A stretch of DNA of 64,000 nt. It comes from Bacteroidota bacterium. GTDB lineage: Bacteria > Bacteroidota > Ignavibacteria > Ignavibacteriales > Ignavibacteriaceae. A program made the position numbers and the translations under genes. Positions within the stretch are counted from its first letter, which is position 1. The number at the start of each line of letters is the position of its first letter. A model generated the notes under the pieces. It ran no database searches. It was not told where the DNA came from and was given only the letters and a program-made list of their open reading frames with translations. Of this stretch, positions 848-19,635 are shown piece by piece. The stretch spans positions 3,499 to 67,498 of the forward strand of contig JAKAJV010000068.1 of NCBI GenBank assembly GCA_021813585.1, read 5' to 3'.

Positions 848-861
848 TGGTGAACCTTTGG

Positions 862-1532: not shown

Positions 1533-1534
1533 TT

Positions 1535-2118: not shown

Positions 2119-2146
2119 ACATATTTTTTAAGTATTAGCTGTTCAT

Positions 2147-2428: not shown

Positions 2429-2482
2429 GGCTTTTTACCTTTCATTATTGTTGTTGTTTAACTTGATTGAATAATTATCTAA

Positions 2483-4069: not shown

Positions 4070-7000
4070 TTACTGCTCAGCTAATTTTTTTTCTAAGCGG
4101 TTTCTGTGGCTTTGTTCAAGCATCAAATGGAAGACCGGTACTGCCAAAAGAGTTAAGAATGTTCCGGTAATAAGTCCGCCGATAGCAACTACTGCAAGCG
4201 GCGAAAGCCGTTCGATACCGACAGCCCATTCCAGTGCAATTGGAATCATTCCGACTGCAGCAGCGCCGGCTGTCATAAGTATCGGTCTCGTTCTTAGCTG
4301 AACTGCTTCAAGTATTGCCTCTCTTGGGGATTTACCTTGTTCCATTGCTACTTTGGCAAAATCAACAAGCAAGATTCCGTTCTTTACAATTATACCCATA
4401 AGCAAAATCAATCCCATGAATGAAGGCAGACAGCCATGTTTGTTTGCAATAAGCATCGCCCACGAAGCGCCGATAAGCGCAAGCGGAAGGCTCGCCATTA
4501 TTGCTACCGGATCGCGGAATGATTTGAATACTATTACAAGCATTAAATAAAGAAGCGCCACGCCAATGGCAAAAGATTTTAACAGAGCGGCAAATGATTC
4601 ATTGAGCTGCATTATCTCGCCGTGATCTGAGATTGAGTATCCGCGGGGCATTGTCAATCCTTTTAATGCAGCCTCGACATTTTTGCTTAACTGAGTAATA
4701 GAAATATTTCCGCGATATCCAAGTACATCTACAGTAGGCAGCAAAGCTTCATGAGTTTCTGCCGTCGGTTCATAAACAACTTTCGGACTTGCGAAAGATG
4801 AAAGCGGAATTAACGAGCCGTCCATCGTTCTGATTGGAATGGCAGCTATGTCTTCATTGTTAGATCTTTGATTTGCTTCAAGGCGAACCCAAACGGGTAT
4901 TGGGATTTCTCCTGTAACGCGAAGATTACCACCTGGAGTACCGCCTACTGCTTGTGCTACCTGTCCGGCAACATCCTGCGGAGTTAAGCCGTACAAGCGA
5001 GCCTTCGCTTCGTTTATTTGAAGATTTATTCTTCTTGATTTTCCCTGCCACGTTCTCTCAATGCCTGTTAAACCTCTGACATATTTCAACCTGTTCATTA
5101 CAGAGTCAGCTAATTGATCAAGTGTACTTGGGTCAGGTCCTGTAATCATCATATCAACTGAACTGCGGATTGACGAGAGGGGAGTTGCGCCGAACTCTGT
5201 TACATTGGAAGATATGAGCCCGGGAATCTTTCGTATTTTTTCTCTAACTTCCTCTTCAATTTGATAGATTGACTGGTTGCGATGAAAGCGGTCGATAATG
5301 CTAACCGTAATTTGACCATGCTGAAGTACGCGGTCTGCGACGAAAGACTTAACGCCGGCTTCGGCACCGTCTACTCCGGACATTGAAAGAAGCCATCCGG
5401 GCTTGAGCGAGCTTTTAACATCTTGTTCAATTTGTCCGGCAATCTTTTCAACACCTGGAGCATCCATATCGGGCTGCGCTTCATAATTAACGAGGAAAGT
5501 TCCGCTGTCCATCAGCGGCATCAGCTCGCGTCCTACAACATTCATTAGTGCTAATGAAATTACAAACAGAACTGCAAATGAAGAGAGGACTAAGCCGCGG
5601 TGTTCCAAGCCCCAGCCAACAACGCGTGCGTAGAAACGCTTCAGAGGATCAAGAACATGAGTTTCAAACGGATGCAATATTTTGTAAAGAGGATCTCTTT
5701 TACCCGGTCTTAGCAAGTAAGGCACCAGCAAAGGAATAATTGTAACAGATACTATAAGTGAAGCCATTAAAGCTACAGACAAAGTAACTGCTAATGGACG
5801 TAAAACTGTTTGAACGTACCCTCCGATAAACATAATCGGAATTAGAACAACGATTACGCTGATGGTTCCGGAAGCTGCGGCAAGAAATATTTCCTGCGTT
5901 CCTTTTGCGGCTGTAACAACGCTGCTGTCGCCAGTTACTCGAATAGTCCTCTCTATATTTTCAATTACAACTATTGCATCATCGGCAAGAAGTCCGACGG
6001 CAATAATAATAGCTGTAAGAGTTACCATATCGAACTCGTAACCGAACATATTGAGTACGGCAAAGGTAAGCAGATAAGTAAACGGAAGAGAAAGTGCCGT
6101 AATAAACGCAGCTCTTGTATCCCCAAGGAAAAGAAGTATGACAATGATGGTCATTATAACGGCGTCTCTTAAAGCGCCGAGCATGTTATCAACTGTCAGA
6201 TCGATTAAGCGACCTTGCGTGTCTGCCTGCTCGATATGCAGCATAGGGAACTGCTGTTCAATTTTAGGAAGTCGTTTGGTAATCTCTGCAATAATTTCGC
6301 GTGCATGTCCCTGCTCGCCGCGAAGCAAAGAAATTGCAATTGCGGGTTGTCCATTGCCCCGGTAAATCGATGTTATATCTGCCGCGCCCCATTTTACTTC
6401 ACCAAGGTCGCCGACCCGGACAAAATTTCCCTTGGGCAGCGGAATTAAAATTTGAGATATATCATCCGGACCTTTTGCGAGCACCTGCGTATTAAGCAAA
6501 TACCTGTTGCCGTGCTGATAAATCAATCCAGAAGGCGTAGAAATGTTTGCCTTGGATAAAGCTAAAGCAACTTGACCAACATTTAGATTGTAAGCTTCAA
6601 GTTTATTTCTATCCAGATCAACTGCAACCTGGCGCTCCTGGCTGCCGAAAACTTCTGCTTCAGCAACACCGGGAATTTGCAGCAGTTCGTCGCGCAATTG
6701 ATTTTCTGCAAGCCTTCTTATTTGAGGCAAGCTTAAATCGTATCCTTTAGATGAAGTTACTGCTAAAACCATCAGCGGTCTCGCCGCATCGGTTATTTTA
6801 AATATCAAGGGATCTTTAATTCCTTGCGGCAATATGCTGCGAACTCGCGGCAGTTCGGTTGTAACTTTGGTTGCGGCTTCATCAATATTATTTCCGTAAT
6901 GAAATTCTATTTGAACAGACGAAACCTGGTCGCGTGAAGTTGACGTTACTCTTCTTACGCCGTCTATCGCTTTCATGCGGACCTCGATAGGATGAGTAAC

Positions 7001-7186
7001 ATCGGTGGCTACATCATTAGCTGCAGCGCCGGGCCATTGCGTAATAACTGCAACGACTGGACGGTTAGTATCCGGGAAAAGGTTCATCGGCAAAGTAATG
7101 TAAGCAATGATTCCCGCCAGTACCGTAACCAAAGTAATTGCAATTATAGCATGCGGTTTGCGCAGCATTCTTTCAAAAAAATTCAT
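4070..7186 (-). CDS. Efflux RND permease, AcrB/HAE1-like
   Basis: 1038 aa with 12-TM RND architecture. The TM4 signature is GLLADDAIVVIENIER. Confidence 0.95.
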   Translation of the reverse strand: MNFFERMLRKPHAIIAITLVTVLAGIIAYITLPMNLFPDTNRPVVAVITQWPGAAANDVATDVTHPIEVRMKAIDGVRRVTSTSRDQVSSVQIEFHYGNNIDEAATKVTTELPRVRSILPQGIKDPLIFKITDAARPLMVLAVTSSKGYDLSLPQIRRLAENQLRDELLQIPGVAEAEVFGSQERQVAVDLDRNKLEAYNLNVGQVALALSKANISTPSGLIYQHGNRYLLNTQVLAKGPDDISQILIPLPKGNFVRVGDLGEVKWGAADITSIYRGNGQPAIAISLLRGEQGHAREIIAEITKRLPKIEQQFPMLHIEQADTQGRLIDLTVDNMLGALRDAVIMTIIVILLFLGDTRAAFITALSLPFTYLLTFAVLNMFGYEFDMVTLTAIIIAVGLLADDAIVVIENIERTIRVTGDSSVVTAAKGTQEIFLAAASGTISVIVVLIPIMFIGGYVQTVLRPLAVTLSVALMASLIVSVTIIPLLVPYLLRPGKRDPLYKILHPFETHVLDPLKRFYARVVGWGLEHRGLVLSSFAVLFVISLALMNVVGRELMPLMDSGTFLVNYEAQPDMDAPGVEKIAGQIEQDVKSSLKPGWLLSMSGVDGAEAGVKSFVADRVLQHGQITVSIIDRFHRNQSIYQIEEEVREKIRKIPGLISSNVTEFGATPLSSIRSSVDMMITGPDPSTLDQLADSVMNRLKYVRGLTGIERTWQGKSRRINLQINEAKARLYGLTPQDVAGQVAQAVGGTPGGNLRVTGEIPIPVWVRLEANQRSNNEDIAAIPIRTMDGSLIPLSSFASPKVVYEPTAETHEALLPTVDVLGYRGNISITQLSKNVEAALKGLTMPRGYSISDHGEIMQLNESFAALLKSFAIGVALLYLMLVIVFKSFRDPVAIMASLPLALIGASWAMLIANKHGCLPSFMGLILLMGIIVKNGILLVDFAKVAMEQGKSPREAILEAVQLRTRPILMTAGAAAVGMIPIALEWAVGIERLSPLAVVAIGGLITGTFLTLLAVPVFHLMLEQSHRNRLEKKLAEQ

Positions 7187-8316
7187 TGCAAGCCTCCTTT
7201 ATTGATGATGACGGGGTCGCCGTCTCTTAAGCTTAGCAGAACGCTTTCCTGTGCAACAATTACTTTATCTCCCGGACGAATATCGCCGGTTACAGCAACA
7301 CCATTTCTGCCGGTAAGCTGAATTGTTACCGGAACTTTTTTTATGATGTTAGTTTTACCGTTTGAAATTACCTTAAAGAGAAAGCTTGTGTTATTTGCAT
7401 CTCCGGTAAGGATTGATTCCTGCGGCACCAGAGTTCCGACAGCACTGCGCTGCAAAACTATTCTGCCGGTTATTCTTTCTCCGTTTGCAAGGTTAAAAGG
7501 AATTTGCGAAAGGTCAGCCTCTGCAGCGCCTAAATCAAATCCATTTAGTAAAGGAAATATTCTGTCAAGTTTAACATTAAGCGAATCGCCGCTGTGGAAA
7601 AGCTGAAGCTCAGCGCCTACTTTGAGCTGTCTTAAAATTTCTTGCGGAAACTCAACATGAATTCTTGCACCGCTTGTTGTTGTGATTTGATAGATAGGCT
7701 GTCCCGGCATTATAACATCACCCGGCTCATGAAAGCGGGCGGAAATAATACCGCTGACCGGCGCAGTTATTCTTCCGTATTCTTCATTTACGCTTAAAGC
7801 TTTAATTTGATTTTCAATTGAAGTAACTTCGTTTGTTGCGCCGATTGATGCAGTATGGTAAGCATCAAGAGAGGATTGGCTGCTTCCGCCGCTGTTGAAA
7901 AGATTTTGTTCTCTTACGTACTCGTCGTTCTTGCGCTTCATATCGGCTTCAGCGGCGGTTAGCCTTGCTTTAAGTCCGGCAAGATTATCCTGAATTGTGC
8001 GGGTATCTATTTGTGCAAGAAAGTTTCCTTTACTTACAGCAACTCCCTCGCGCGGACCCATACTAACAAGCGTGCCTCCAATTTGTGCAGTTAGAGTAAC
8101 ATTGCCTTGTGTAATTAAAGTTGCAAGTACGGGATAACCATCAGTTACAGAAGCTTCGTGAGCAACGGCAGTATTTAACGCCCACGGAGTAATTATTTGA
8201 GAAGGTATATGCTGAACCTGCTTTATGCGTATAATAACCAGTGAGATTAAAATTACCGCTATCACTATAGCAGCTATCCAGGTTAATCGTTTCTTTGGTT
8301 TACTTTTATTTTCCAT
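7183..8316 (-). CDS. Efflux RND periplasmic adaptor (MFP/HlyD family)
   Basis: 377 aa with an N-terminal TM helix, coiled-coil and barrel-sandwich pattern. A 4-nt overlap with the RND gene suggests translational coupling. Confidence 0.9.
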   Translation of the reverse strand: MENKSKPKKRLTWIAAIVIAVILISLVIIRIKQVQHIPSQIITPWALNTAVAHEASVTDGYPVLATLITQGNVTLTAQIGGTLVSMGPREGVAVSKGNFLAQIDTRTIQDNLAGLKARLTAAEADMKRKNDEYVREQNLFNSGGSSQSSLDAYHTASIGATNEVTSIENQIKALSVNEEYGRITAPVSGIISARFHEPGDVIMPGQPIYQITTTSGARIHVEFPQEILRQLKVGAELQLFHSGDSLNVKLDRIFPLLNGFDLGAAEADLSQIPFNLANGERITGRIVLQRSAVGTLVPQESILTGDANNTSFLFKVISNGKTNIIKKVPVTIQLTGRNGVAVTGDIRPGDKVIVAQESVLLSLRDGDPVIINKGGLQ

Positions 8317-8387
8317 ATTCTTATTCCAGATTTATTTATGTTATAAAAATTATTTTCTAATTTATCTCTTTAACAAAGCCAGTGTTT

Positions 8388-8424
8388 TGGAGTATTGGAA
8401 TAATGGAGTAATGAACTTCGACAT
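8388..8424. repeat. GGAGTAATGGAATAATGG-family repeat, copy b (left arm only)
   Basis: TTGGAGTATTGGAATAATGGAGTAATG. A degenerate partner arm (ATTCCAACATTGCATTATTCAATAATTCCAAT) lies at about 8616-8650, on the far side of the CACAGAG element. Confidence 0.6.
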
Positions 8425-8470
8425 GCTTGAGTCTTATTTGTCCGATCAACGAAGAATAATTATGTTTCAG

Positions 8471-8570
8471 CTTCTCTGTGGCTCTCTGTGAAGACTCGGT
8501 GCTCTCTGTGTAACTGAATTTTTTATTACACAGAGTTACACAGAGGAAAGCACAGAGTTTCACAGAGAAA
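8471..8570. repeat. CACAGAG-family palindromic repeat, copy A
   Basis: The left arm has 3 CTCTGTG units plus one degenerate unit. The right arm has 4 CACAGAG units at 10-12 nt spacing and ends in TTTCACAGAGAAA. Confidence 0.85.
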
Positions 8571-8664
8571 TATTTCAGAAGTATTTCTTCAGACAATAAT
8601 TTTTCATTCCAACATTGCATTATTCAATAATTCCAATTTTTATACCTCAAAAGTAATAGCAGCT

Positions 8665-10020
8665 TTAAGGCGTTGTATAGTTAGTGTAAGCCGAGGGCGG
8701 CAAACCTTGAGCTAAGCGAAGCGAATCATCCGCCTGCAACCAATGAGCCAGCGCTGCAAAATAAGAAGCGCGTGCAAAGGCAAGCTTTGCCTCGGCATCC
8801 AAATAATCTGTAACGGAAAGCCTTCCTTGATTGAATTGTTCCTTCTGAATTCGTTCTACTTCTAAAGCGGCTTTAAGCGAGCTTTCAGCCGATAAATACT
8901 GAGATTTACTTGAATTCCAATCGCCAATTGAAGAAACTAATTCTGCATTTGCCGAATTCTTCAAAACATTCCTTTGTTCTGTAATAGCTAACTGTTTTGC
9001 ATCAGCTTCTTGAACGCGCGCCACTCTTGTTAAACCAGTCCATATAGGAAAATCAACAGTAAGACCGATCTGCCAGAAAGGAGCGTCTTTACCTTTGCCG
9101 TTAAAGCCCTGGTTAACCATCCAGTTTCCTTGAATATAAGCCTTCGGCAAGAATGATTCCCAAGCAACCGATACTCCGGAATTTGCGGCTAACACTTTTT
9201 CTTCAATTGATTTTATATCCGGACGGTCATTTATTTCAAATGGAGAATTTTGGATGTCTAATGGCTGGTTAGCCGGCGGTGCAACGGAATCGGGAAAAGA
9301 TTGTTGATTCAACAAAGCTGCAAGATATGCACGAAGCTTTAAGTTTGTTCCGTTGGCATCGGCAATCTGACCTTCAATATTGCTTAGCTCCGATTGCATT
9401 CTCAAACTATCTACCGGTGCTCTTCTTCCAACTTTTATTGCAACAATAGTTATCGCAAGCTGTTTCCGAATTGCATCGGCTTGTTTATTAAGAGCACTGA
9501 GTTTTCCGGATATTGATTCTATTCCGTGGAATAGAGCAGCTGCTTGATTAAGTACAGCAAGCCGGACATTCGCGGCATCGTAGGCTGCCGCATGTTCCTG
9601 ATGGGCGAGTGAGGTTAACTGTGTTATCATTTGTCCGTTTATGTCAAGCGGAAGAGTAAGCGACAAACCATAGCCTATTTGTCTTGAGTCGTAGGGCATA
9701 GTTGCGAAATTTATAGGCGGAGAAATTGGTCTCGTTAATCTGTTATCGTTAAAATACTGAAGCTGTCCAAATGCATCTAAAGAACCGAACAATTTTCCCA
9801 AACCTTCGAACCTGTTAGCGGAATAAATTTTTGCATTTGCATTAGCGGCTTTTAATGTGGGTGCATTAGCTTCGACCTGATGAAGAAGCTTACCCAAATT
9901 AGCAGTCTGCGCCCGAACTTGTGCTAAAAATAAAGTAAGCATCAAAAGCACAACTATACTACCGGTGTACTTTATTTGTCTTAAAGGCTCATCTAGACTT
10001 TTAATATTTTGTGTTCTCAT
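8665..10020 (-). CDS. TolC-family outer membrane efflux protein
   Basis: 451 aa with a signal peptide and two-repeat alpha/beta TolC-like composition. It sits first in an operon with the MFP and RND genes. Confidence 0.9.
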   Translation of the reverse strand: MRTQNIKSLDEPLRQIKYTGSIVVLLMLTLFLAQVRAQTANLGKLLHQVEANAPTLKAANANAKIYSANRFEGLGKLFGSLDAFGQLQYFNDNRLTRPISPPINFATMPYDSRQIGYGLSLTLPLDINGQMITQLTSLAHQEHAAAYDAANVRLAVLNQAAALFHGIESISGKLSALNKQADAIRKQLAITIVAIKVGRRAPVDSLRMQSELSNIEGQIADANGTNLKLRAYLAALLNQQSFPDSVAPPANQPLDIQNSPFEINDRPDIKSIEEKVLAANSGVSVAWESFLPKAYIQGNWMVNQGFNGKGKDAPFWQIGLTVDFPIWTGLTRVARVQEADAKQLAITEQRNVLKNSANAELVSSIGDWNSSKSQYLSAESSLKAALEVERIQKEQFNQGRLSVTDYLDAEAKLAFARASYFAALAHWLQADDSLRLAQGLPPSAYTNYTTP

Positions 10021-10041
10021 TTAGTTTCCTTATTGTTTTAA

Positions 10042-10401
10042 TTAATAATTTCTATGCGTATGAATATTATTATGATAATCATGCGGCGTTATTAAATCTT
10101 CTTCTTCTTTGGATTTTACAAATCCTATTAGAATAAAAATTATACCCGATATAAAAGCGTTACAATATTTACAAGGGATGATTTCGAGCGAAGGGATAAA
10201 AGCAGAAATGATTAACCATATACCCAAAACGGCACCTATCCAACCTTCAATTGATTTCTTGACTGTAAGTGTTAAACCGGAAATTGCCGAAATGATTCCT
10301 ACAATAATTAAATTTGTAATGTTTGCTTGTATCGATTGAAATAATACTGAGGATACCAACAACCAGATCCCAAGTGTACCTATAATTTTTTTCTGTAGCA
10401 T
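10042..10401 (-). CDS. Small 4-TM membrane protein with a His-rich C-terminal tail
   Basis: 119 aa. The tail is PHDYHNNIHTHRNY. It lies 21 nt upstream of the TolC gene on the same strand. Confidence 0.5.
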   Translation of the reverse strand: MLQKKIIGTLGIWLLVSSVLFQSIQANITNLIIVGIISAISGLTLTVKKSIEGWIGAVLGIWLIISAFIPSLEIIPCKYCNAFISGIIFILIGFVKSKEEEDLITPHDYHNNIHTHRNY

Positions 10402-10651
10402 AATATCATATCCAAAATTTTAATATTTAGGTAAAAACAATTGTTATGCCGGGAATTTTAGAAGAGTTATCTTACTTAATTTCTATAACTTATAGGGCTA
10501 CAAGAATCTTGACTTGTTTGGGTGCGAAATGGCTTTACGCAGTGAGAAAAGGTAATCGAATTGTTATTACTTTCTTCTATTGAAAATAGAAGTGTTATGT
10601 CATATTTTTGTTTGAATAGAATTAGGAGAGAACTTTTATATAGGAGCCGAG

Positions 10652-10882: not shown

Positions 10883-10884
10883 AT

Positions 10885-11133
10885 TTGGAAAGGAGATTTT
10901 ATATGGAAGCAACATTCAAAATAAAAAGTGAAAAATTCGATTATTCTTTCGTAGAAAAGATCAAATCCTTATTTGATTCTGAAAAAATACTTAAGGTTAC
11001 TGTCTCAGATGAGATGGATGAAACAGAGTATTTGTTATCATCAGAAAAAAATGCTTTAATGATTGCAGAGTCACTACAACAATTTCTTCGTAATGAAACA
11101 GTTACAATTTCTGAAAAGGAATTGTTGAAGTGA
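10885..11133 (+). CDS. YefM/Phd-like antitoxin (divergent N-terminus); the likely start is the ATG at 10903
   Basis: The C-terminal DETEYLLSSEKNALMIAESLQQ resembles the YefM ETAYLLRSPANARRL segment. It overlaps the yoeB start by 4 nt. Confidence 0.65.
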   Translation: MERRFYMEATFKIKSEKFDYSFVEKIKSLFDSEKILKVTVSDEMDETEYLLSSEKNALMIAESLQQFLRNETVTISEKELLK

Positions 11134-11390
11134 TCAAGTTTTCAAAACGAGCTTGGAATGATTATGAATATTGGCAGCACACTGATAAAAGAAAACTAGA
11201 GAGAATCAATGACTTAATTAAAGACTGCATTCGAAATCCTTTCAATGGAATTGGAAAACCTGAAGCATTAAAAGGAAATTTGGCTGGTTTGTGGTCACGA
11301 CGAATTGATGAAGAACATCGTTTATTATTCCGTTATGAAAAGGGTGAATTAGAAATTATAAGCTGTAGGTTTCATTACGAAGAAAAATGA
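11130..11390 (+). CDS. yoeB: Txe/YoeB family toxin
   Basis: AWNDYEYWQHTDKRKLERINDLIKD...GKPEALKGNLAGLWSRRIDEEHRLLF...CRFHY aligns along its full length with E. coli YoeB. Confidence 0.9.
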   Translation: MIKFSKRAWNDYEYWQHTDKRKLERINDLIKDCIRNPFNGIGKPEALKGNLAGLWSRRIDEEHRLLFRYEKGELEIISCRFHYEEK

Positions 11391-11429: not shown

Positions 11430-12851
11430 TCATTTCCTAAATTTTTCCGCATCAATATTATGCTTGCATAACAGATTCTGTATTTGGCGTCGGTCGTAGC
11501 CGCTTATTTCCGAAGCGCGAGTTACATTGCCTTGCGTGGAATTTAATAACTTAATTAAAAACTTGTTTTCAAGTTCATCAAGAATGCTGTCTGTTCTTTT
11601 CCTTTTTTCTTCCTGAAGTTCATCCTTGGTAAGAGGAATATATTCTTCATCCGATGCAGCTTCTTCTTTGTATGCCGCTAAAACTTCTTCCGGTAAATTC
11701 TCCGGTGTAATTCTTCCATCCAAAGAAAAAATAATTGACTGCTGCATTACATTCTCAAGCTCGCGGATGTTACCGGACCAATTATAGCTTTGCAAAATCT
11801 TTCTCGCTTTTTCTACAACGACTAAGTTTTCATTCTTATTTAAGTTGGAATATTTTTTTAAGAAGTGTTCTATAAGTAAGGGAATGTCTTCCTTTCTTTC
11901 TCTTAAAGGAGGGATGCGCAAATAAACAACACGAAGGCGGTAATATAGGTCCTGTCTAAAATTCCCTTTATCAACTTCATTCTTCAAATTTTTATTTGTC
12001 GCAGCTACTATTCTTGCGTTGGTAGTTATAAACTGAGTCCCACCAACGCGGGTAAATTTTTGATTTTCTAAAACATGAAGAAGCTTAACTTGTAAATCAA
12101 GCGGCAGCTCGCCAATTTCATCAAGAAATAAAGTGCCTCCGCTGGCAAGTTCAAATTTTCCTTTCTTCATGTTTACCGCGCCGGTAAAAGCGCCGCGCTC
12201 ATGTCCGAAGAGTTCACTCTCAAGCAAGTCGTGCGGAATAGCGCCGCAGTTAATTTCGATAAATGAATTATCAGCCCGGCTGCTTAGATAGTGCACTGCA
12301 CGAGCAAACAGCATTTTACCGGTTCCGGATTCGCCCTCAATTAAAATTGTTGCCGGCGTTTGAGCAACCTGACCCATCAATTCCATCAGCGATTTCATTT
12401 GCGGATTGATAGTAATTATTTCATTAAATCCTTCGTACTTCTTTATTTTTTCTTTAAGGGATAAATTCTCTTCCAACAACTTTCCGAACTGAAGTGATTT
12501 TTCAATCACTGCTTCTAGCTCGTCTATTTTTATTGGCTTTGAAATATAATCGTGTGCGCCCATCTTCATTGCTTCAACTGCGTTCTCTACGCTGCCGAAT
12601 GCAGTCATAATTATTACCGGAATAGTTTTATAATTTTCTTTTGCCCAGCGAAGCAGTTCAAGCCCGTTCATTTCCGGCATGTTAAAATCTGTAAGAATTA
12701 AATGAACGCGGTTGTTATTTATAAGTTCTACTGCTTGTTTTCCGTTTTGTGCTAGTAAAATGTTAAAGTTTGTTTTTAAGCTTAAACTTATAACCCGTCT
12801 TTCCTTATCTTCGTCGTCAACGATTATTATAGTTGTTTTTTGGTTTTCCAT
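11430..12851 (-). CDS. Sigma54-dependent response regulator (NtrC family: REC + AAA+ + Fis-type HTH)
   Basis: 473 aa. It has the Walker A GESGTGK, the GAFTGA sigma54-contact motif, and a C-terminal HTH ([21 protein letters not shown]). Confidence 0.95.
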
Positions 12852-12852: not shown

Positions 12853-14973
12853 TCATTCCATTTTGTTAATAGGAAAAGAAATAATAAACTGAGTTGATTC
12901 AGTTTTAGAATTAACAGTAATTGTTCCGCCCATACTTGTTACAATATTGTGAACAATAGAAAGTCCAAGTCCGGTGCCTTCTTCCTTTGTCGTAAAGAAG
13001 GGATTAAATATTTCGTTCAACTTTTCTTCCGGTATGCCGATTCCGTTGTCTTCTATTTTAATTAAAATTTTGTTTCCTAATTCTTCCGTAGAAAATTGCA
13101 GCAGTCCATTCGGGCAGCTAAAACTGTCATCTTTCTTGCACCGCTCTATAATTGCATCAATGCTGTTTAATCCAAGATTCAACAAAGCCTGGTATAGAAG
13201 ATTAGAATCGGTATTTAGCATAGTCTTCTTTTCGCAGTCGCATTGAATTTTTATATTACCGGTATTTTTGGCTTCGACTGCGGTTATTGCTTTTGCGAAC
13301 AAAGTTCCTACTTCAACTAATTCATACTTAATTTCAAGCGTTCTGGATAACTTTAGAAAATCTTTTAATAAATTATCAAGGTGGTTAACTTCGTTTACAA
13401 TATAGTCAAGCAATTCTGAGATTTCATCTACACTTAATTTTCCCTTTTTAATATTTTGTGCCGAAACTGAAATTGTGTTTAACGGATTTTTAATCTCGTG
13501 AGCAATGCCAGCGGTCATTTGACCAATGGCTGCAAGCTTTTCTAATTTGAATTGTTCTTCTTTTTGCTTCTGCAGTTCTTCAAATATTTTGTTTCTGTGG
13601 AAAGCGATAACCACTTCGTTAGCCAATATTGTAAGCCTTTCCAACTCATCCTCGGTAAATTTATTATCATATCTTTTTTTAGAAAGAAAAAGTACAGCCA
13701 AAATTTCATCATGGAAAGCCAAGGGCAGAATTACTTCGATTCTTCTAGTTTTTAATAATCTTAAAAAGGGTGAATTAGGCTTACCGGCATCAAGCTCATA
13801 AATCTCAACAGCCCGTTTGGCTGAAAGGAAAAAATCTGAATAGTTCTTTATTAGCTCTGATGGAATAGCATCTGGAGGGTTAGCCGTGCAGTTATAATTA
13901 CCGGCGTTATCTTTTAGATAGCATGTTACATCTTCTATCAAAAAATTTTTTCTGATGAAGTTTTTTACTTTTGGCAATAACACATGAGGCTCAAGATAAT
14001 TTTGCAATTCAATATTAAACATCGAAAAATTGTGGCGGTACTTTCCTATGTCTCTTAAAAATAATTTGTCAAGCAGGCGTTGAAGCCTTGTTTCCAGAGG
14101 CTTAATCAGAGAAACTAATATTAGGATTACAAATGCCGAAGTTAAGAACGAGTTAATTCCGAAAATATTGTTTAGTTGGCGGCTGACATTTTCAACAACT
14201 ATAAAATAAACCGCGAGAATAATCGTGTAAATAATCGAATAGACAATACCACTTCGCAGAATCCTTTTTGTTGCAAAGGTTTTATAATAAACAAGTAAGA
14301 AGAGGAAAAAAATATTTATCGACAGCACGAATATCGTGTTAAGAAAGTAAATTGAAAATTCGGGAGCGAGGTAAATGCGAAAGATGTTAATCAACAGAAA
14401 ATATGCAATAATTACAGTGAAGCCGGTTAATAAAAATAAAGTTTGATTTTTCTGTTTAATCGTTCGCAGCTTATGAATTTTGGTTATTAAAACAGCGGCG
14501 CCCCAAACCAGATAGGCGGCTGTAATAATTAACTGAATGACAAATAAAGATTCAGTAGTAAATCTTAGCTTGTAGAAGTATCCCGCTTGTTCATTTTGCA
14601 GTTGAATTATGTCAATTTTAAAATGCGGGAACGACGATGCTAAAAGAATTACCGGGACAGAAAATAAGGCGATGTAGAAATAAGCTTTACCGGCAATATC
14701 AGAGGTTTGAACTGGAAAGTTGAATGCAATTGCTACAAAAAAAGCAGGCAGCAGAAAAATTATTCTGTATAGTACTTGAGCGCCGAATAATGCATCGGAA
14801 AAATTAGAAGTAGTAAGGATTAAAATATCGGCGAGATTCCATAAAACAAACACCATCACAAAAGCCGCAAACCAGCGGTTTACCTTTGACTTAGGATTAT
14901 CCAGAAGTATTATAAAAGCTATACTGAAATTTATTGTAAAGGCTAATATTGACGGTAAAGAATAAACGTTCAT
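12853..14973 (-). CDS. Sensor histidine kinase with a multi-pass N-terminal membrane domain
   Basis: 706 aa with about 7 N-terminal TM helices. The H-box is AHEIKNPL, with DNGIGI and [12 protein letters not shown]-lid motifs. It is adjacent to the response regulator gene. Confidence 0.9.
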
Positions 14974-15030
14974 AAACTAATCAAGGCAGTCGTTCAAAAA
15001 AAAATAAATTTTTAAAATTTAATATGTTTT

Positions 15031-15127
15031 AGTCTCAGTGGTCCTCTGTGTTTCCTCTGTGCAACTCTGTGTAACTTTCTTTTAGTTACACAGAGAGCCA
15101 CAGAGAGCCACTGAGTTTCACAGAGAA
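15031..15127. repeat. CACAGAG-family palindromic repeat, copy B
   Basis: The four left-arm units are CTCAGTG, CTCTGTG, CTCTGTG and CTCTGTG. The four right-arm units are CACAGAG, CACAGAG, CACTGAG and CACAGAG, at 10 nt spacing. The element ends 3 nt from the stop of the FmdE gene. Confidence 0.85.
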
Positions 15128-15130
15128 ATT

Positions 15131-15733
15131 TTATTTGGCAGCGCAGTCAATGCAAACGTGCTTGCCGCCTTTAATTCTGCCGTAGCTTTCAACTGTCATT
15201 TCGCCGCAGTCATCGCAGACAAAGCCGTTAAAGTTATCACTGTGAGGTTCAAGCTTGTAATCGAAAACTTTGGAGATGTTCAACAACTTTTCGTTTGGCA
15301 CTGCCATTACGTTTACGATTAAAGGATCCACAACTCTTGCCGGAACATTACACGCCGGAATTCCTTTCTCTCTATATTCTTTGAAGAAAGTCGATTGCTT
15401 ATTTTGCAGCATCGCTTCGGCTTTTGGAGTAACGCGAACTGCTTTACCGGATGCTTTATCAACAAGCGTAACCGCCCATTTGCCTTTGTGTGTTTTTTTG
15501 ATGTTACCTTTGCCGAATGTTGTTCCCATAATTACTTGAAGCCCGTCGGCATAGCAAGTAGCGCAGTGGTCTTCGCCTAAATCTACGAAAGCAATTATTT
15601 GTCCGTCTTTGGCTCGTTCTACGCCGAGCGCATTCATTGCGGCTGCGCCGACCTTTAAGCCCATCGGCATTGCGGGGCATTTGTGTCCATGAAATTTTTG
15701 TCCGAACTCTAACCAATCTTGAGGATTTATCAT
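15131..15733 (-). CDS. FmdE-family protein with a C-terminal zinc ribbon
   Basis: 200 aa. FHGHKCPAMPMGLKVG is the FmdE signature, and CDDCGE...CIDC forms the Zn ribbon. Confidence 0.85.
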   Translation of the reverse strand: MINPQDWLEFGQKFHGHKCPAMPMGLKVGAAAMNALGVERAKDGQIIAFVDLGEDHCATCYADGLQVIMGTTFGKGNIKKTHKGKWAVTLVDKASGKAVRVTPKAEAMLQNKQSTFFKEYREKGIPACNVPARVVDPLIVNVMAVPNEKLLNISKVFDYKLEPHSDNFNGFVCDDCGEMTVESYGRIKGGKHVCIDCAAK

Positions 15734-15753
15734 TTTGTTTCTCCTAATTTGTC

Positions 15754-15773
15754 ATTCCCGCGAAAGCGGGAAT
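15754..15773. repeat. REP-like hairpin ATTCCCGC-GAAA-GCGGGAAT
   Basis: Perfect 8-bp stem with a tetraloop, located between the porin stop and the FmdE start. Confidence 0.6.
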
Positions 15774-15790
15774 CTATTTTGAATATGTTT

Positions 15791-16822
15791 TTAATTAAAG
15801 AAATACTGAATTTGTAAAGTTGTCAGCGCATTAGTTCTATTTGATGCAAACTGAAATTTATTATCTAAAGAAATTTTTATATCGTTTCCTTTTACGAGAT
15901 ATGAATACCCAATGACATACCAGGGATTATCAACCGTTGTGGGATTTAAGTCAATCAATTGTTCAACCGAAAGTGTAATTAGATTTTTTGAAGCGAACAA
16001 ATAATCAGCCAGAGCATAACATCCGTAAGCTTTTTGATTACCAAGATGCGCCTCGATGTATTCAGATTGCAATTCAAAATCCCCGAGATTAAATTTTTCT
16101 TCAAAGCCGAAACGGAAATCATTCCCGGTAAAAGAATAATTGTCTCCAAAGATTTTACTGAATTGTAAATCATGCGCGTCACGATAAGAAAGGTTGTAAC
16201 CTAATTCTAATTTAGATTCTGAATTGTTAAACAAGAATAAATTTCCCCGGTTTACGTAAAGAAAATTCCTTTTGTTAGAAACGGTGTTAGCGCCGTTCCC
16301 GTTAAAGAAGCCGAAGCTGATTGAAAATCCCTTCGGGAAAGAACCGATTTTGCTATCGGCTAATTTTAATTCAACGCCGATGTCTCTTGCCATAGTTTCT
16401 GCCCCAGGAACAAGCGCATTAACTACGTCCGCTCTTTCATCAAGCGGTATTAAATAGTCGGGCTGTTTTCTCTGCAAGCTAAAATCCGGTACAAATTGTC
16501 CGGCAGTAACTTCAAAATTATTTATCTTATAACTGACAAGAACATCTTGAAGCAAAAATTGAAATTTAACTTGCTGAAGAAAATTTGCTTGTAGTTTGTA
16601 ACTCCAATTGCCTTCATCTGCGGGCAGTAAACTATCAACCCAAAACTTCGCTCTTCTGACTGAGAAATTTGTTTGATTGAGATAATTATCGGAAAAGCGA
16701 TACTGCAAATAGCCATTCCAATTGATTTTTTGCTGAGCGATAGCAGTTGTACCTAATGCAAGCAAGAATACAAAAGTAAAAATGAGTTTTACTCTGTGAT
16801 TCTCCGTGCGTACTCTGTGCAA
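15791..16822 (-). CDS. Porin, OprO/OprP-like (anion-selective porin family)
   Basis: Beta-barrel composition ending in ...LQIQYFFN. The signal peptide is KLIFTFVFLLALGTTAIAQQ. The long ORF reaches 16900, but its first 26 codons translate the CACAGAG repeat, so the TTG at 16822 is the more plausible start. Confidence 0.6.
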   Translation of the reverse strand: MHRVRTENHRVKLIFTFVFLLALGTTAIAQQKINWNGYLQYRFSDNYLNQTNFSVRRAKFWVDSLLPADEGNWSYKLQANFLQQVKFQFLLQDVLVSYKINNFEVTAGQFVPDFSLQRKQPDYLIPLDERADVVNALVPGAETMARDIGVELKLADSKIGSFPKGFSISFGFFNGNGANTVSNKRNFLYVNRGNLFLFNNSESKLELGYNLSYRDAHDLQFSKIFGDNYSFTGNDFRFGFEEKFNLGDFELQSEYIEAHLGNQKAYGCYALADYLFASKNLITLSVEQLIDLNPTTVDNPWYVIGYSYLVKGNDIKISLDNKFQFASNRTNALTTLQIQYFFN

Positions 16823-16884
16823 CTCTGTGTAACCTTTTTTGTAACACAGAGTACCACAGAGGTGGCACAGAGTTCCACAGAGAG
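16791..16884. repeat. CACAGAG-family palindromic repeat, copy C
   Basis: ACTCTGTG...CTCTGTGTAAC / GTAACACAGAGTACCACAGAGGTGGCACAGAGTTCCACAGAGAGAAAA. It overlaps the 5' end of the porin ORF. Confidence 0.85.
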
Positions 16885-16916
16885 AAAATTTAGAATCCAT
16901 AATTACCGCCTTGCTT

Positions 16917-17690
16917 TCAAACTAATTTGATTAAGATTTGTGCAGCAAGCGCCCACATGATTAGACCAAGTCCTGCTTTTATCATTTTCGGTTTTACTTT
17001 AAGACTGAATCTTGCGCCAAGGTTTCCGCCGACAAGAACCGCAATTCCGACTATCGCAATTAATGGATAATCGAGTCGTTGATTAGCTGCATGTCCTAAA
17101 ATTCCAGCAAGAGCTGAAAAAGATATAATTAAATGCGAAGAACCGGCTGCAGATTTTGTGGGATATTTTAGAACGTAAGTCATAAAAGGAACAACCAATA
17201 CACCGCCGCCAACACCAAGCAAACCGGAGATAATGCCGACAGCAAAACTAAAAATTACAATCAGCACATACATTCCAAAAGTACGGTGCGGCATTGGCTC
17301 ATCATCCGTGTCATTTCCTTTTTGCCAATATGTAAGAATCATTCTTGCGCCAAGGATTATTAGAAACGACACAAACAACCATAATAATATATTGGCATTC
17401 ACATACTTAGCGTAAAAGCCGCCAGCAAAAGCGCCAACTACAATACCCGGCACAAACATGAAAGATGCTTTCATGTCAATCATCTTATTCTTATAAAAGA
17501 TATAACCGGCGGATAGTGAGGTAATTAAATTTAGAACTAAAGAGGTTGAAGTAGAAATTAACACCGCGTAGCCAAGCAGAATTAACAGCGGAGAGTACAC
17601 CGACCCTCCGCCTTGACCAAACATCGAGAATATGAAAGCCAGAACAAAAGAAAATATTACTGCCATTAAAAGAGCACTGCTGAAATCCAT
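16917..17690 (-). CDS. TauE/SafE (DUF81) family anion permease
   Basis: 257 aa with about 8 TM helices. It shows the internal duplication with GQGGGS and GVGGGV motifs that is typical of DUF81. Confidence 0.9.
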   Translation of the reverse strand: MDFSSALLMAVIFSFVLAFIFSMFGQGGGSVYSPLLILLGYAVLISTSTSLVLNLITSLSAGYIFYKNKMIDMKASFMFVPGIVVGAFAGGFYAKYVNANILLWLFVSFLIILGARMILTYWQKGNDTDDEPMPHRTFGMYVLIVIFSFAVGIISGLLGVGGGVLVVPFMTYVLKYPTKSAAGSSHLIISFSALAGILGHAANQRLDYPLIAIVGIAVLVGGNLGARFSLKVKPKMIKAGLGLIMWALAAQILIKLV

Positions 17691-17699
17691 TTTCTTCTC

Positions 17700-18377
17700 C
17701 TATTTATCGCTTCTGGAAATAAGCGAGTTTGGCAAATGAATTATTGTTTCTTCTGCTTCTCTTTCAGAGCAAGAGATGCAAACCTTCTTTCCGTCTTTTA
17801 GACGCAAGTATCTTTCAAAAGTATATTCGCCGCATACTTCACACTTTGCTTTGTTGAAAGAACTTTTAACCGGAGTATATTTGAAATTTTCAAGAACAGT
17901 TACAGTAAAGAGTTCTTCATTTGTTGCATTAAGAACGATATCGATAATATCTTTCCTTACATCTTCCGGAATTTCGGATGGTTCAATTCCTTGTTTGCGG
18001 TATTTGAAAAATTCGTGCGGTGCAAGCTTATCCTGGAATTCATTTTTCAGAAATATTCTTACGGCATCTTTTTTACCCGGATACCAAAAGATTGCCGCGA
18101 CCTTTCCGTAGTTCAATCTTTCAATCATTCCTTTGCCAAATGTAGCGCCGGTCGCAGACATAATGCCGTCTTGCATACAGCCTTGCGGATGACCGACACC
18201 CATTTCCGAAAACACGTGCATCTGGTGGTCTAAGCTTTTGCTAACACCAAGTTTTTCTAATGCTAAAGTTCCCATTCTATAACCGATTGGCATAAAGGGG
18301 CACCTGTGCCCGTGAAATTCAAAAGTCCAGTCAGGTAAATTAAATTTTGTTGGGTGAGATTTTTCAATGTTCGACAT
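17700..18377 (-). CDS. FmdE-family protein with a C-terminal zinc ribbon (paralog of 15131-15733)
   Basis: 225 aa with FHGHRCPFMPIGYRMG, and CEVCGE...CISC forming the Zn ribbon. Confidence 0.85.
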   Translation of the reverse strand: MSNIEKSHPTKFNLPDWTFEFHGHRCPFMPIGYRMGTLALEKLGVSKSLDHQMHVFSEMGVGHPQGCMQDGIMSATGATFGKGMIERLNYGKVAAIFWYPGKKDAVRIFLKNEFQDKLAPHEFFKYRKQGIEPSEIPEDVRKDIIDIVLNATNEELFTVTVLENFKYTPVKSSFNKAKCEVCGEYTFERYLRLKDGKKVCISCSEREAEETIIHLPNSLISRSDK

Positions 18378-18402
18378 TGTTTTTGTTCCTTTCTATATTT
18401 AT

Positions 18403-18423
18403 AAGTAAATAATTACTTACATA
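18403..18423. promoter_or_regulatory. Candidate TetR operator (palindromic), site 1
   Basis: AAGTAAATAATTACTTACATA lies between the TetR stop and the FmdE start. It contains the near-perfect palindrome TAAGTAAAT/AATTACTTA. It matches the site at 19053-19073 at 17 of 21 positions. Confidence 0.5.
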
Positions 18424-18438
18424 ATTAATTAAAATTTT

Positions 18439-19029
18439 TTATTTTTTTAATATCCTTAAAATTAAAGTAAACATTCTCTTACAGAAGTTATTCATGTTCA
18501 AGCCGCTTTTATTCAGTACCAATTCTATATTGAATGTTATAGGTATGCCCATATAGATAACGGCGATATCTTCGGCATTGACATTCTTATCCCAGACTCC
18601 TTCAGCTACTCCGTCTTTAACAATCTTAGCAATAAGCTGCTTTTGCTCGGATAGAATCTGACTCAATTTATCCTTTAACTCCTTGTCGCCAAGATGTGCT
18701 GCCTCAGAAAACAGAAGTATAGTTATACCTCTATTTTCTTTAAGATAATTAACATGGCGGCACAAAAAATTAAACAGCTTTTCTTCAGCCTTTACCGGGC
18801 TTAAAGCAATGCTGCGCAGTTGACCTACCAGACCATTAGCGACATCATCCATTATTCCTTTTATAATATCACGCTTTGTGGGAAAGTGACGGAATATTGC
18901 GCCTTCGGTTAAGCCAATTCTCTTTGCAAGATTTCTTGTAGAAACATTGTTCAGCCCTTCATCAGCGATTATTTCAAGTACAGCTTTCTTAATCTGTTCC
19001 TGTCTTATATCTGTTGTTTCTCTTGACAT
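18439..19029 (-). CDS. TetR/AcrR family transcriptional regulator
   Basis: 196 aa. The N-terminal HTH is STRNLAKRIGLTEGAIFRHFPTKRDI. Confidence 0.9.
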   Translation of the reverse strand: MSRETTDIRQEQIKKAVLEIIADEGLNNVSTRNLAKRIGLTEGAIFRHFPTKRDIIKGIMDDVANGLVGQLRSIALSPVKAEEKLFNFLCRHVNYLKENRGITILLFSEAAHLGDKELKDKLSQILSEQKQLIAKIVKDGVAEGVWDKNVNAEDIAVIYMGIPITFNIELVLNKSGLNMNNFCKRMFTLILRILKK

Positions 19030-19052
19030 TTTTTCTTCTCAAAAAAATAAAT

Positions 19053-19073
19053 ATGTAAACAGTTACTTACAAA
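19053..19073. promoter_or_regulatory. Candidate TetR operator, site 2 (autoregulatory)
   Basis: ATGTAAACAGTTACTTACAAA lies 24 nt upstream of the TetR start. It shares GTAAA-N3-TTACTTACA with site 1. Confidence 0.45.
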
Positions 19074-19137
19074 AATATAGAAGAAAAATTAAAAGTCAAG
19101 TGGCTTACCTGATAATTTTTGTAGCAAGTATGAAAAC

Positions 19138-19263
19138 ATAGCGCGGCAAGCCGCAATTCAAAATTAAAAATGAAAAATTAAAAATGAATACACTTAAAAT
19201 ATCTTGACACAAAAAATCCCAAAGGGATCACAATGTGACAAAAATTTAACTGGCAATACTATA
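19138..19263 (+). mobile_element. ATA-flanked short interspersed element (GCGCGGCAAGCCGCAATT...GGCAATACT), copy 1, about 120 bp plus flanking ATA
   Basis: Nearly identical to the copies at 50744-50848 and 58881-58978. It carries an extra internal segment, TCCCAAAGGGATCACAATGTGAC. ATA is present on both sides. Confidence 0.7.
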
Positions 19264-19359: not shown

Positions 19360-19635
19360 ATGGCATTTTCTAAGAAAGAAGAGTTTACGAAGGAAGATAT
19401 ATGGCTGGCAGATATTGCCAAGGCATTGGCTCATCCGGCTTGGATCTTAAATCAGAAACTTTACTCGCCCTTCGGGCTCTTTCCGATTCTGATTTATCAG
19501 CTATTATCTTTACTTTTTCTTCTTGTATCATTACCGTTATTTCTCGTTTCCCCTCTACATTTTTTCTTTTTTATATACTCTTTCGCAAAATTAAAAAAGC
19601 AGTCAATAAAATATATAGTAGTAATAGATCGCTAA
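19360..19635 (+). pseudogene. N-terminal remnant of an ArsR-family gene fused to unrelated hydrophobic sequence
   Basis: The first ~30 aa (MAFSKKEEFTKEDIWLADIAKALAHPA) resemble the start of Bacteroidota-type ArsR regulators (...AKALAHPARIAIL). The HTH that should follow is absent in all frames. The rest of the ORF is a pyrimidine-rich tract. Confidence 0.35.

Follow-up and report, generated by a model that had tools for sequence, protein, structure and literature searches.

What do five genes accomplish together that lie side by side, in one direction, on the minus strand at 15131-19029 of a 64-kb stretch of an Ignavibacteria genome (contig JAKAJV010000068.1), the whole of which is here called the window? 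They encode a TetR-family repressor, two FmdE-family proteins that end in a ribbon (FmdE1 and FmdE2), a TauE/SafE permease and a Porin_O_P porin, and they are followed by a histidine kinase and a sigma54-dependent response regulator. The original prediction was of an envelope-spanning route for an oxyanion, with the FmdE proteins as cytoplasmic acceptors and a link to the two-component system. Comparison with related loci leads to another answer: tetR-fmdE1-tauE-porin-fmdE2 would be a self-contained, horizontally mobile accessory cassette of thiophilic metal(loid) resistance islands, involved in detoxification or export, a reading to which we assign a probability of roughly 0.55. The cassette and the two genes that follow it are:

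18439..19029, minus strand: TetR-family repressor, 196 amino acids (aa), with a YsiA/FadR-like C-terminal domain (Pfam TetR_N, E 7.8e-11; TetR_C_4, E 1.9e-7)
17700..18377, minus strand: FmdE1, 225 aa (Pfam FmdE, E 7e-31, 107.5 bits, plus a zf-dskA_traR ribbon)
16917..17690, minus strand: TauE/SafE (TSUP) inner-membrane transporter, 257 aa (PF01925, TC 2.A.102, E 6.3e-46, profile positions 2-236 of 237)
15791..16900, minus strand: Porin_O_P (PF07396) outer-membrane porin, open reading frame (ORF) of 369 aa (E 2.8e-10, 40.5 bits against a cut-off of 20.9)
15131..15733, minus strand: FmdE2, 200 aa (Pfam FmdE, E 1.1e-25, 90.7 bits, plus a ribbon)
12853..14973, minus strand: 7TM-sensor histidine kinase (Pfam HisKA_7TM, GAF-like, HisKA and HATPase_c)
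11430..12851, minus strand: NtrC/AtoC-type sigma54-dependent response regulator (Pfam Sigma54_activat, E 1.1e-69; Response_reg, E 1.2e-29)

An ORF check and Pfam searches bear out the five co-directional ORFs and the families first given to them, and the profiles place the 257-aa and 369-aa products in TauE and Porin_O_P, not in non-anion families. Both FmdE paralogs lie above the PF02663 cut-off of 22.9 bits, and the porin match spans profile positions 8-277 of 370. In NCBIfam there were zero matches for FmdE1, FmdE2 or the porin, and those for TauE were weak and uninformative. From tetR to fmdE2 the intergenic gaps measure 61, 9, 16 and 57 bp. The predicted order of cassette, kinase and sigma54 activator also stands, except that the two units do not directly abut, a gap of 157 bp lying between fmdE2 and the kinase gene.

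Recurrence and surroundings of the cassette

Relatives of FmdE1 were found in 315 genomes in a scan that used one genome per species, and the best 80 species-level loci were analysed; related loci from other genomes or plasmids used for comparison bear L-numbers below. The 80 loci belong to isolates and metagenome-assembled genomes of Ignavibacteria, Bacteroidales, Kapaibacteria, and Calditrichia-like and Chlorobi-like bacteria. Gene order was counted in the 58 of them that have at least 3.5 kb of downstream sequence. Downstream of FmdE1, TauE is present in 49/58, the porin in 38/58, a second FmdE in 33/58 and all three in 31/58, with none of them in 9/58, so that the predicted FmdE/TauE/porin adjacency is kept in related genomes. 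Applied to 269 kb of unrelated DNA as a control, the same probes gave no match. Because the arrangement recurs in dozens of species and the control gave zero matches, the adjacency is far beyond chance, and fmdE1-tauE-porin-fmdE2 is a conserved unit.

FmdE1 is 70-93% identical across loci, and FmdE2 has a median identity of 81% and a minimum of 38%, values by which both can be regarded as slow-evolving. TauE and the porin each split into two deeply divergent classes, with 27-33% identity between classes, and all four class combinations are seen, FmdE1 meanwhile keeping 73-93%. Judged by its sequences, the cassette looks like a set of interchangeable steps, not a co-adapted machine. A co-adapted FmdE-TauE-porin complex was considered, and this candidate is weakened by the occurrence of every TauE/porin class combination.

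The core of the cassette is also found far outside these phyla. The FmdE-TauE pair is carried by Citrobacter/Klebsiella plasmids; on a C. amalonaticus plasmid, TauE-CDF lies beside FmdE, with arsA-arsC-ACR3 and ArsP-Trx around them. The Sulfuricella plasmid pSCD has the order RND-Trx-CcdA-OsmC-TauE-FmdE...CDF-RND, and a Halorubrum plasmid the order FmdE-TauE-CDF-ZIP. The FmdE-TauE(-CDF) core thus recurs on proteobacterial and haloarchaeal plasmids.

For the neighbourhood, all ORFs around the 80 loci were clustered and the recurrent clusters annotated. The numbers of loci are:

ArsR 41; Thioredoxin_3 34; DsbD_TM 29; Thioredoxin 26; LMWPc ArsC 21
Acr3 (SBF) 20; CDF 18; ArsP_1 15 + 12; ArsM-like methyltransferase 13; RND 13
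DUF169 12; NifX-like 9; OsmC, CMD and DGC also found

A typical order, that of L011, is ArsR-ArsM-TetR-FmdE-TauE-Porin-FmdE-CDF-ArsR-ArsC-Trx3-Acr3-ArsP. Among the 35 loci of at least 18 kb, 22 have at least one ars-specific gene, 17 have at least two, and 30 have any ars/CDF/RND/ArsR gene; the same probes gave 0 matches on the 269 kb of control sequence. The CDF carries HxxxD motifs in transmembrane helices (TM) 2 and 5 (HD-HD) and His-rich termini, the features of the Zn/Cd/Co type. The genomic context is arsenic/thiophilic-metal resistance, not Mo/W uptake: where a molybdate or tungstate setting had been foreseen, the neighbours are instead ArsR, ArsC, Acr3, ArsP, ArsM, HD-HD CDF, RND and Trx/DsbD. 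The other half of that forecast, a role in metal or metalloid trafficking, fits both this context and the His2Cys2 site of the FmdE proteins.

The window holds a trace of such an island next to tetR:

19360..19446, plus strand: truncated arsR remnant, first ~29 codons, divergent from tetR (tblastn with the ArsR of L021)

The remnant is 83% identical to the L021 ArsR over residues 1-29 (E 4e-13), and ArsR of this type precedes arsM-tetR-fmdE in related loci (L008, L011, L021). Its divergent orientation relative to tetR implies that an ars island once present here was rearranged or has decayed. As it now stands, the window cassette does not look like part of a canonical ars operon, and it is not a sigma54 operon.

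Several loci show variants of the arrangement. One Ignavibacteria genome has a tandem duplicate FmdE-TauE-CDF unit, without porin or FmdE2 (L025, 7471-12500), a hint that the smallest working unit consists of these three genes. A small protein of the NifX/NifB family (Nitro_FeMo-Co, PF02579) is encoded directly before fmdE1, after tetR or the operator, in nine loci (L008, L010, L012, L014, L023, L032, L041, L044, L061), and also near FmdE-TauE on a Citrobacter plasmid (L121, near 18544), a link to metal-cluster-binding proteins.

In three loci with enough flank, genes of S-adenosylmethionine (SAM) chemistry lie downstream of fmdE2 in stand-alone TetR cassettes: a radical-SAM protein of ~425 aa in L018 and L031, and a CMAS-type SAM methyltransferase of 374 aa in L018, L031 and L008 (L018 7733-10288; L031 13317-15843; L008 13362-14486, methyltransferase alone). 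The two might form an alkylation or arsenolipid-type pathway. On Deinococcus plasmids, distant FmdE homologs (L125 5980-6570; L128 4950-5546) show translational coupling to a nitrate transporter of the NarK/NasA or MFS kind; with 24-31% identity, no TauE, and a molybdopterin oxidoreductase beside them, they look like a separate subfamily whose partners are Mo enzymes and not TauE.

The proteins of the cassette

The motifs said to be common to the two FmdE paralogs are real, FHGHxCPxMPxG and CxxC...CxxC being invariant in alignment A1. Measured over 79 FmdE1 and 37 FmdE2 sequences, the His2Cys2 site (H22, H24, C26 and C67 in FmdE1; H15, H17, C19 and C60 in FmdE2) is 96-100% conserved. FmdE1 has further conserved histidines (H51, H54, H63, H121), and FmdE2 a further conserved H56-C57, giving HCxxC (motif DHCATC). 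The C-terminal Cys4 treble-clef ribbon of FmdE1 (C179, C182, C200, C203) is invariant as a set; FmdE2 also ends in a Cys4 ribbon. The paralogs are 37% identical to each other. FmdE1 shares ~50% identity with Ta1109 of Thermoplasma (PDB 2GVI; phmmer E 4e-58), and the AlphaFold2 model of FmdE2 (pLDDT 77) matches 2GVI in Foldseek with E 3.6e-15. By sequence match or model, both proteins accordingly show the 2GVI/3D00 fold and a C-terminal treble-clef Zn ribbon, and FmdE1 is a cytoplasmic member of the FmdE family. The Foldseek matches of the FmdE2 model were limited to three uncharacterised structural-genomics entries, and offered no enzyme or chaperone analogy.

In crystals, FHGHxC and a distal Cys bind Zn/Ni tetrahedrally, and the distal Cys of 2GVI carries an attached ligand of undefined identity (Axelrod 2010, PMC2954224). 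FmdE was originally found in Mo/W formylmethanofuran dehydrogenase operons, and most FmdE genes have been reported to adjoin metal transporters (PMC2954224). Genes for fmd/fwd catalytic subunits were found neither in the window nor in the 80 related loci, and FmdE1 and FmdE2 are therefore not formylmethanofuran dehydrogenase subunits. With methanogen FmdE/FwdE and the structures 2GVI, 3D00 and 2GLZ they share the Pfam family, FHGHxC, the distal Cys and the C-terminal treble-clef Zn ribbon. They differ from this group in having no fmd/fwd or Mo/W enzyme genes nearby, in being paired with TauE, CDF and porin, and in the extra conserved His of FmdE1 and the HCxxC of FmdE2 at the site.

In TauE, the conserved residues are Gly/Pro motifs, loop lysines, D72 and H200, with no conserved Cys or Met. 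The families nearest to TSUP are NiCoT and ArsP, within the TOG superfamily (PMC7176098). A sequence search of the PDB gave no match for TauE or for the porin (no PDB porin with phmmer). The AlphaFold2 model of the porin (pLDDT 77) has 16 strands and, in keeping with a constriction loop L3, a long low-confidence loop at residues 99-134. In Foldseek it retrieves generic trimeric porins, with OprP at rank 2 and 16% identity and with OmpT, OmpC and OmpF scoring equally; its conserved charges are mixed, 11 basic and 7 acidic, both kinds being present in loop L3. The equal scores and mixed charges leave anion selectivity of the porin unproven. The original prediction of an OprO/P-type anion-selective porin and a small-anion permease thus stands as to the families, and anion selectivity is not established for either protein, TSUP itself being nearest to NiCoT/ArsP. 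Like Pseudomonas OprP/OprO, the cassette porin is a PF07396 member with 16 predicted strands and has them among its top Foldseek matches; unlike them, it shows mixed conserved charges at that 16% identity, offers no verifiable arginine ladder of the kind that, together with a lysine cluster, gives anion or phosphate selectivity, and lacks a pst/pho context, as pst/pho genes occur neither in the window nor among the recurrent neighbours.

At its 5' end the porin ORF as annotated overlaps a dispersed repeat, the first of two stable hairpins at the cassette, both resembling repetitive extragenic palindromic (REP) elements:

16787..16887, minus strand: REP-like palindromic repeat CTCTGTG...CACAGAG within the operon (RNA fold -52.1 kcal/mol, z -7.5); as a copy of the repeat family, 16772-16883
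15033..15126, minus strand: second REP-like hairpin, between the fmdE2 stop and the kinase start (-46.1 kcal/mol, z -7.2); as a copy of the repeat family, 15014-15132; it may be an operon boundary or an mRNA-stability element

The first ~38 codons of the 369-aa ORF read through the CACAGAG palindromic repeat, and porin orthologs without the repeat are 327-341 aa long, with a signal peptide ending FA|QQ; for these two reasons the ORF is over-extended at its 5' end. The real product in the window probably has ~330-343 aa and a signal peptide ...LALGTTAIA|QQ. The repeat-derived N-terminal extension is spurious and Cys-rich, and the same holds for 363-aa orthologs in other genomes.

Regulation of the cassette and of the neighbouring efflux operon

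The 64 kb of the window contain exactly two matches to the palindrome TAAGTAA-N4-TTACTTA, one before tetR and one before fmdE1:

19052..19069, minus strand: candidate operator O1, TAAGTAACTGTTTACATA (coding strand), 1 mismatch to the palindrome
18402..18419, minus strand: candidate operator O2, perfect palindrome, 24 bp before the fmdE1 start codon

O1 lies directly downstream of a promoter-like TTGACT-N16-TATTTT at 19072-19099. In related loci the palindrome is found 6-29 bp before tetR (29 loci), 10-29 bp before the first cassette gene (34 loci; FmdE in 26, NifX-like in 8) and before OEP-MFP-RND operons (3-4 loci), and L017 has five perfect copies. This gives a clear phylogenetic footprint of a predicted TetR regulon that comprises tetR, the cassette and an RND pump. 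The conserved regulator of the cassette, as far as these predicted operators tell, is TetR. In Bacteroidales, ArsR takes its place directly before the cassette or a lone FmdE, with ArsR directly upstream in 9 loci; this ArsR carries CCYSGD...KYC(I/L)N, shared with the ArsRs of Trx3-DsbD-ArsP operons. Of the regulators first proposed, TetR is thereby upheld, with footprinted operators and with ArsR instead in Bacteroidales, and the two-component system is not.

C90, C183 and H112 in the TetR ligand domain are conserved among 38 orthologs. By profile the protein most resembles acyl-CoA binders of the FadR/YsiA type, at scores far under the cut-offs for these. TetR-family sensors of metals or electrophiles that control efflux include SczA (acting on czcD), ComR and NemR. 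The cassette TetR resembles them in the conserved Cys/His of its ligand domain and in predicted palindromic operators before its own gene and transporter operons; it differs in that its sequence cannot be assigned to any of them, the nearest profile being FadR/YsiA.

The link of the module to the sigma54 two-component system, part of the original prediction, is not general. Counted from the cassette side, a kinase or sigma54-regulator homolog is present at 2/58 loci. True orthologs of the kinase are few and, where flanks exist, follow the cassette only in the window, L030, L087, L095 and L127. A sigma54 promoter in front of the cassette was sought and rejected: TGGCAC-N5-TTGC with at most 2 mismatches gave 40 matches against 45 expected by chance, none of them in front of tetR or fmdE1. 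Alignment A5 shows no conservation ahead of the kinase gene, and a -24/-12 element is likewise missing there. The link between cassette and sigma54 system is real and confined to one narrow Ignavibacteria lineage.

The likelier target lies on the other side of the regulator. Kinase orthologs precede an SPW-OEP-MFP operon in the window, L030 and L089, and the features there are:

4070..10401, minus strand: efflux operon (Pfam, NCBIfam), made up of an SPW-repeat membrane protein (10042-10401), OEP (8665-10020), MFP (7183-8316) and RND (4070-7186)
10437..10451, minus strand: sigma54 -24/-12-like element CGGCAT-N5-TTGT, ~40 nt before the SPW gene (alignment A4)
10523..10541, minus strand: imperfect palindrome TGCGTAAAGCCATTTCGCA, candidate enhancer (upstream activating sequence), ~75 nt further upstream, kept in the window, L030 and L089 (A4)

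GGCAT-N5-TTG(C/A/T) is common to the upstream regions of the SPW gene in the window, L030 and L089, and L089 has a canonical TGGCAT-N5-TTGC at the equivalent place. Because kinase orthologs precede this operon and a -24/-12-like element is conserved there, the target of the regulator is re-assigned: it most likely drives, on the evidence of these sites, SPW-OEP-MFP-RND and not the cassette. It counts against this that the window element has TTGT, not TTGC, at -12. Elsewhere such a pump stands behind a TetR operator, with the order TetR-FmdE-OEP-MFP-RND-TauE in L003/L045 (RND 86% identical) and TetR-OEP-MFP-RND with operators in L017, L052, L059 and L076; in the window's lineage the two-component system appears to have taken the pump over.

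The signature of TM4 in HME-type RND pumps is DFG-DGA-VEN. The corresponding motif in the window pump reads GLLADDAIVVIEN, which we take to be AcrB-like (HAE-type). An HME-type (Czc/Cus) identity was rejected, as the CzcA/CusA model gives it 415 bits, short of the cut-off of 701, and multidrug RND models fit better. By these sequence criteria the neighbouring pump is classed as AcrB-like, not Czc-like.

Other features of the window lie around these operons. Between the response regulator and the efflux operon there is an opposite-strand insert (10652-11390, plus strand), and downstream of the RND pump a small cluster of metal flavour (167-3064, minus strand), which also has LTXXQ-like, FeoC-like and SHOCT proteins:

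11130-11390, plus strand: YoeB-type toxin
10885-11133, plus strand: putative antitoxin
10652-10882, plus strand: further small ORF, 77% conserved in L030
2483-3064, minus strand: weak MerT-like membrane protein
1535-1936, minus strand: ArsR/SmtB regulator, distant from the cassette
167-847, minus strand: TehB/ArsM-like methyltransferase

Dispersed repeats are frequent. The CTCTGTG/CACAGAG element, with further copies at 8530-8574 and 62216-62263, is a dispersed repeat similar to REP elements or miniature inverted-repeat transposable elements; Rfam gave no family match over window 8-20 kb. The others are:

19152-19241, 50759-50848, 58889-58978 and 62592-62681: another dispersed repeat, intergenic, AT-rich and ~90 nt long, AATTAAAAATGAAAAATTAAAAAT...ATATCTTGACACAAAAAA; it holds a TTGACA-like hexamer and may be a promoter-bearing element
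8381-8418, 26301-26330, 45317-45346, 55206-55243 and 59994-60023: intergenic octamer repeats, dispersed or tandem, of GGAGTAAT/GGAATAAT units, including the unusually long 349-bp OEP-MFP spacer

Proposed function and competing explanations

The reading of the cassette as a detoxification and export module can be put as a sequence of steps. A thiol-reactive toxicant would free TetR (or ArsR) from the operon by way of the conserved Cys/His in the ligand domain. The leading candidate, in view of the links to arsM, arsP and ArsR, would be arsenic/antimony in trivalent inorganic or methylated form; the alternative, in view of the links to CDF and ZIP, would be Zn/Cd-type cations. Cytoplasmic FmdE1/FmdE2 dimers would then capture the toxicant on their Cys/His sites, buffering or processing it. 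The toxicant itself, or a conjugate or product that is anionic, would pass the inner membrane by way of TauE and then leave the periplasm through the dedicated 16-strand porin. The kinase and sigma54 regulator would be a recent lineage-specific addition, most likely driving SPW-OEP-MFP-RND.

This logic of repressor, cytosolic carrier and exporter resembles ArsR-ArsD-ArsAB, ArsP and SczA-CzcD. The ars operons (ArsR-ArsD-ArsA-ArsB/Acr3; ArsP) have in common with the cassette repressor control, a cytoplasmic Cys-rich protein, an inner-membrane exporter and residence in the same islands; in addition, the Bacteroidales cassette is under the ArsR subtype of the Trx3-DsbD-ArsP operon, and TSUP is close to ArsP. 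Unlike them, the cassette encodes no homologs of ArsD, ArsA, ArsB or Acr3, has TetR as its main regulator, and adds a dedicated outer-membrane porin and two FmdE paralogs.

Several points weigh against the proposed function. It is assigned by guilt by association, and resistance islands pool unrelated determinants, so that the neighbourhood cannot fix the substrate; substrate, transport direction and biochemistry are what we infer from it. No recognisable metal gene lies near 5/35 of the long loci (e.g. L006, L013, L020, L031), and the window holds the stand-alone version, with no intact ars gene beside the cassette. TauE offers no conserved Cys/Met for soft-metal coordination, and the free reassortment of TauE and porin classes counts against a tightly docked FmdE-TauE complex. 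The FadR/YsiA-like C-terminal domain of TetR, together with the AcrB-like character of the co-regulated pump, hints at an organic ligand, such as an organoarsenical, and not a bare ion.

A wider version of the same idea, which we regard as possible and put forward tentatively, is that FmdE and TSUP, often with CDF, form an ancient bacterial/archaeal pair for metal(loid) detoxification. FmdE would be a new class of cytosolic Cys/His metallochaperone or processing enzyme, the processing possibly directed at trivalent or methylated arsenic from the neighbouring ArsM; the FmdE-linked TSUP would be a metal(loid) exporter, and the porin would have been added in diderms to finish an exit path across the envelope.

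A TetR-family Zn sensor that controls a CDF is known in SczA, and this precedent favours, among the competing explanations, homeostasis of divalent cations (Zn/Cd/Co/Ni). In that case the FmdE proteins would be Zn/Cd buffers or chaperones working with CDF, TauE would be a counter-ion or cation carrier, and the porin would vent or admit the cation. An HD-HD CDF with His-rich ends does stand directly after or before the cassette in many loci, Halorubrum (FmdE-TauE-CDF-ZIP) and Sulfuricella (TauE-FmdE...CDF) both do without ars genes, the FmdE crystal site holds Zn/Ni (PMC2954224), and TSUP is related to NiCoT (PMC7176098). The explanation nevertheless appears unlikely: CDF is found at 18/80 loci, against 36/80 for ars-type genes, pure ars operons can include a lone FmdE1 (L073, L075), the conserved residues of TauE form no acidic, His or Cys cluster for a cation beyond D72 and H200, and the RND pump under shared regulation resembles AcrB and not Czc.

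Characterised TauE/SafE relatives transport sulfite and sulfonates, and the BigR and cst operons combine a persulfide-sensing repressor with a TauE-type sulfite exporter. By analogy, the cassette could serve the detoxification of reactive sulfur or sulfite: TauE would export sulfite, thiosulfate or sulfonate, the ArsR types would be persulfide sensors, FmdE would be a thiol-based enzyme or carrier, and the ars genes would be mere neighbours in sulfidic habitats. The family name and relatives of TauE/SafE agree with this, as do many thiol-redox neighbours (Trx_3, Trx, DsbD/CcdA, OsmC, CMD) and, on Citrobacter plasmids, genes for rhodanese, thioredoxin reductase, an FAD-dependent oxidoreductase by ArsR/SmtB, and SufD-like proteins. 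The ArsRs before FmdE, moreover, have a CC...C pattern and not the classical ELCVCDL As(III) site; the same CC-type ArsR, however, governs ArsP operons. The likeness to BigR/cst thus extends to a thiol-based or ArsR-family repressor, a TauE/SafE permease and thiol-redox neighbours. It ends where the cassette shows no conserved persulfide dioxygenase, rhodanese or SQR, none of which is recurrent among the 80 loci of the FCB group; the recurrent partners are ArsC, Acr3, ArsM, ArsP and a Zn/Cd-type CDF, and ars genes dominate the neighbourhood. BigR/cst operons, for their part, lack FmdE, porin and CDF, and the His2Cys2 site of FmdE is metal-bound in crystals (PMC2954224). A sulfur role is, on balance, decidedly unlikely.

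Highly improbable is the original prediction, read as the uptake of a beneficial oxyanion (molybdate, tungstate, or a selenite/sulfite type) with FmdE as acceptor and under sigma54 control. What speaks for it is the origin of FmdE in Mo/W formylmethanofuran dehydrogenase operons (PMC2954224), the NifX/NifB-type protein encoded after tetR and before fmdE1 at 8-9 loci, and present on the Citrobacter plasmid too, the molybdopterin oxidoreductase and NarK/NasA beside Deinococcus FmdE homologs, and the nominally anion-type Pfam families TauE and Porin_O_P. The Deinococcus homologs, however, are the separate, TauE-less subfamily at 24-31% identity, and neither the window nor the 80 loci yielded a binding protein of the ModA/TupA type, a gene for Mo cofactor or a Mo/W enzyme. 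The regulators (TetR, ArsR) are of the type derepressed by a toxicant, and the genes around the cassette encode exporters; 56/58 loci lack the sigma54 system, whose promoter-like site stands before the RND operon; and thiolate/imidazole sites would be ill-suited to oxyanions. That the genes are independent units, adjacent by chance in a gene-dense island, as the stable REP-like hairpins between tauE and porin and after fmdE2, the reassorting TauE/porin classes and the ability of FmdE1 to stand alone might suggest, has a next to negligible probability given an order that recurs over Ignavibacteria, Bacteroidales, Kapaibacteria, Calditrichia and Chlorobi-like genomes, an FmdE-TauE pair kept in Proteobacteria and Archaea, short gaps, and a single conserved operator before the first gene.

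A search of the available literature found no paper joining FmdE with TauE, and FmdE together with arsenic only in an unrelated metagenome survey. Two surveys of ars operons do not mention TauE, FmdE or porins, and the Desulfovibrio sigma54 regulome mentions TSUP operons and not FmdE. Since this search showed no pairing of FmdE with TauE and the families have no assigned role in such systems, the cassette of the proposed detoxification reading would be a metal(loid)-resistance operon of novel composition.

No function has been assigned to non-methanogen FmdE proteins or to most members of TSUP/TauE and Porin_O_P, and the cassette gives them a common, testable context. Its carriers are anaerobic Bacteroidota and Ignavibacteriota, and its core is also plasmid-borne in clinical Enterobacteriaceae, in a sulfur oxidiser and in a haloarchaeon. 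Some carriers are cultivable (Microbacter margulisiae, Melioribacter, Sulfuricella denitrificans, Citrobacter freundii), which, together with a defined operator prediction, makes the role of FmdE directly testable. If the ancient-pair version is true, it would provide the first function for a non-methanogen FmdE and the first metal(loid) substrate for TSUP. If the cassette is a resistance determinant, it would be a new component of As/metal biogeochemistry in anoxic sediments, digesters and guts, and a new co-selected cargo on multidrug-resistance plasmids.

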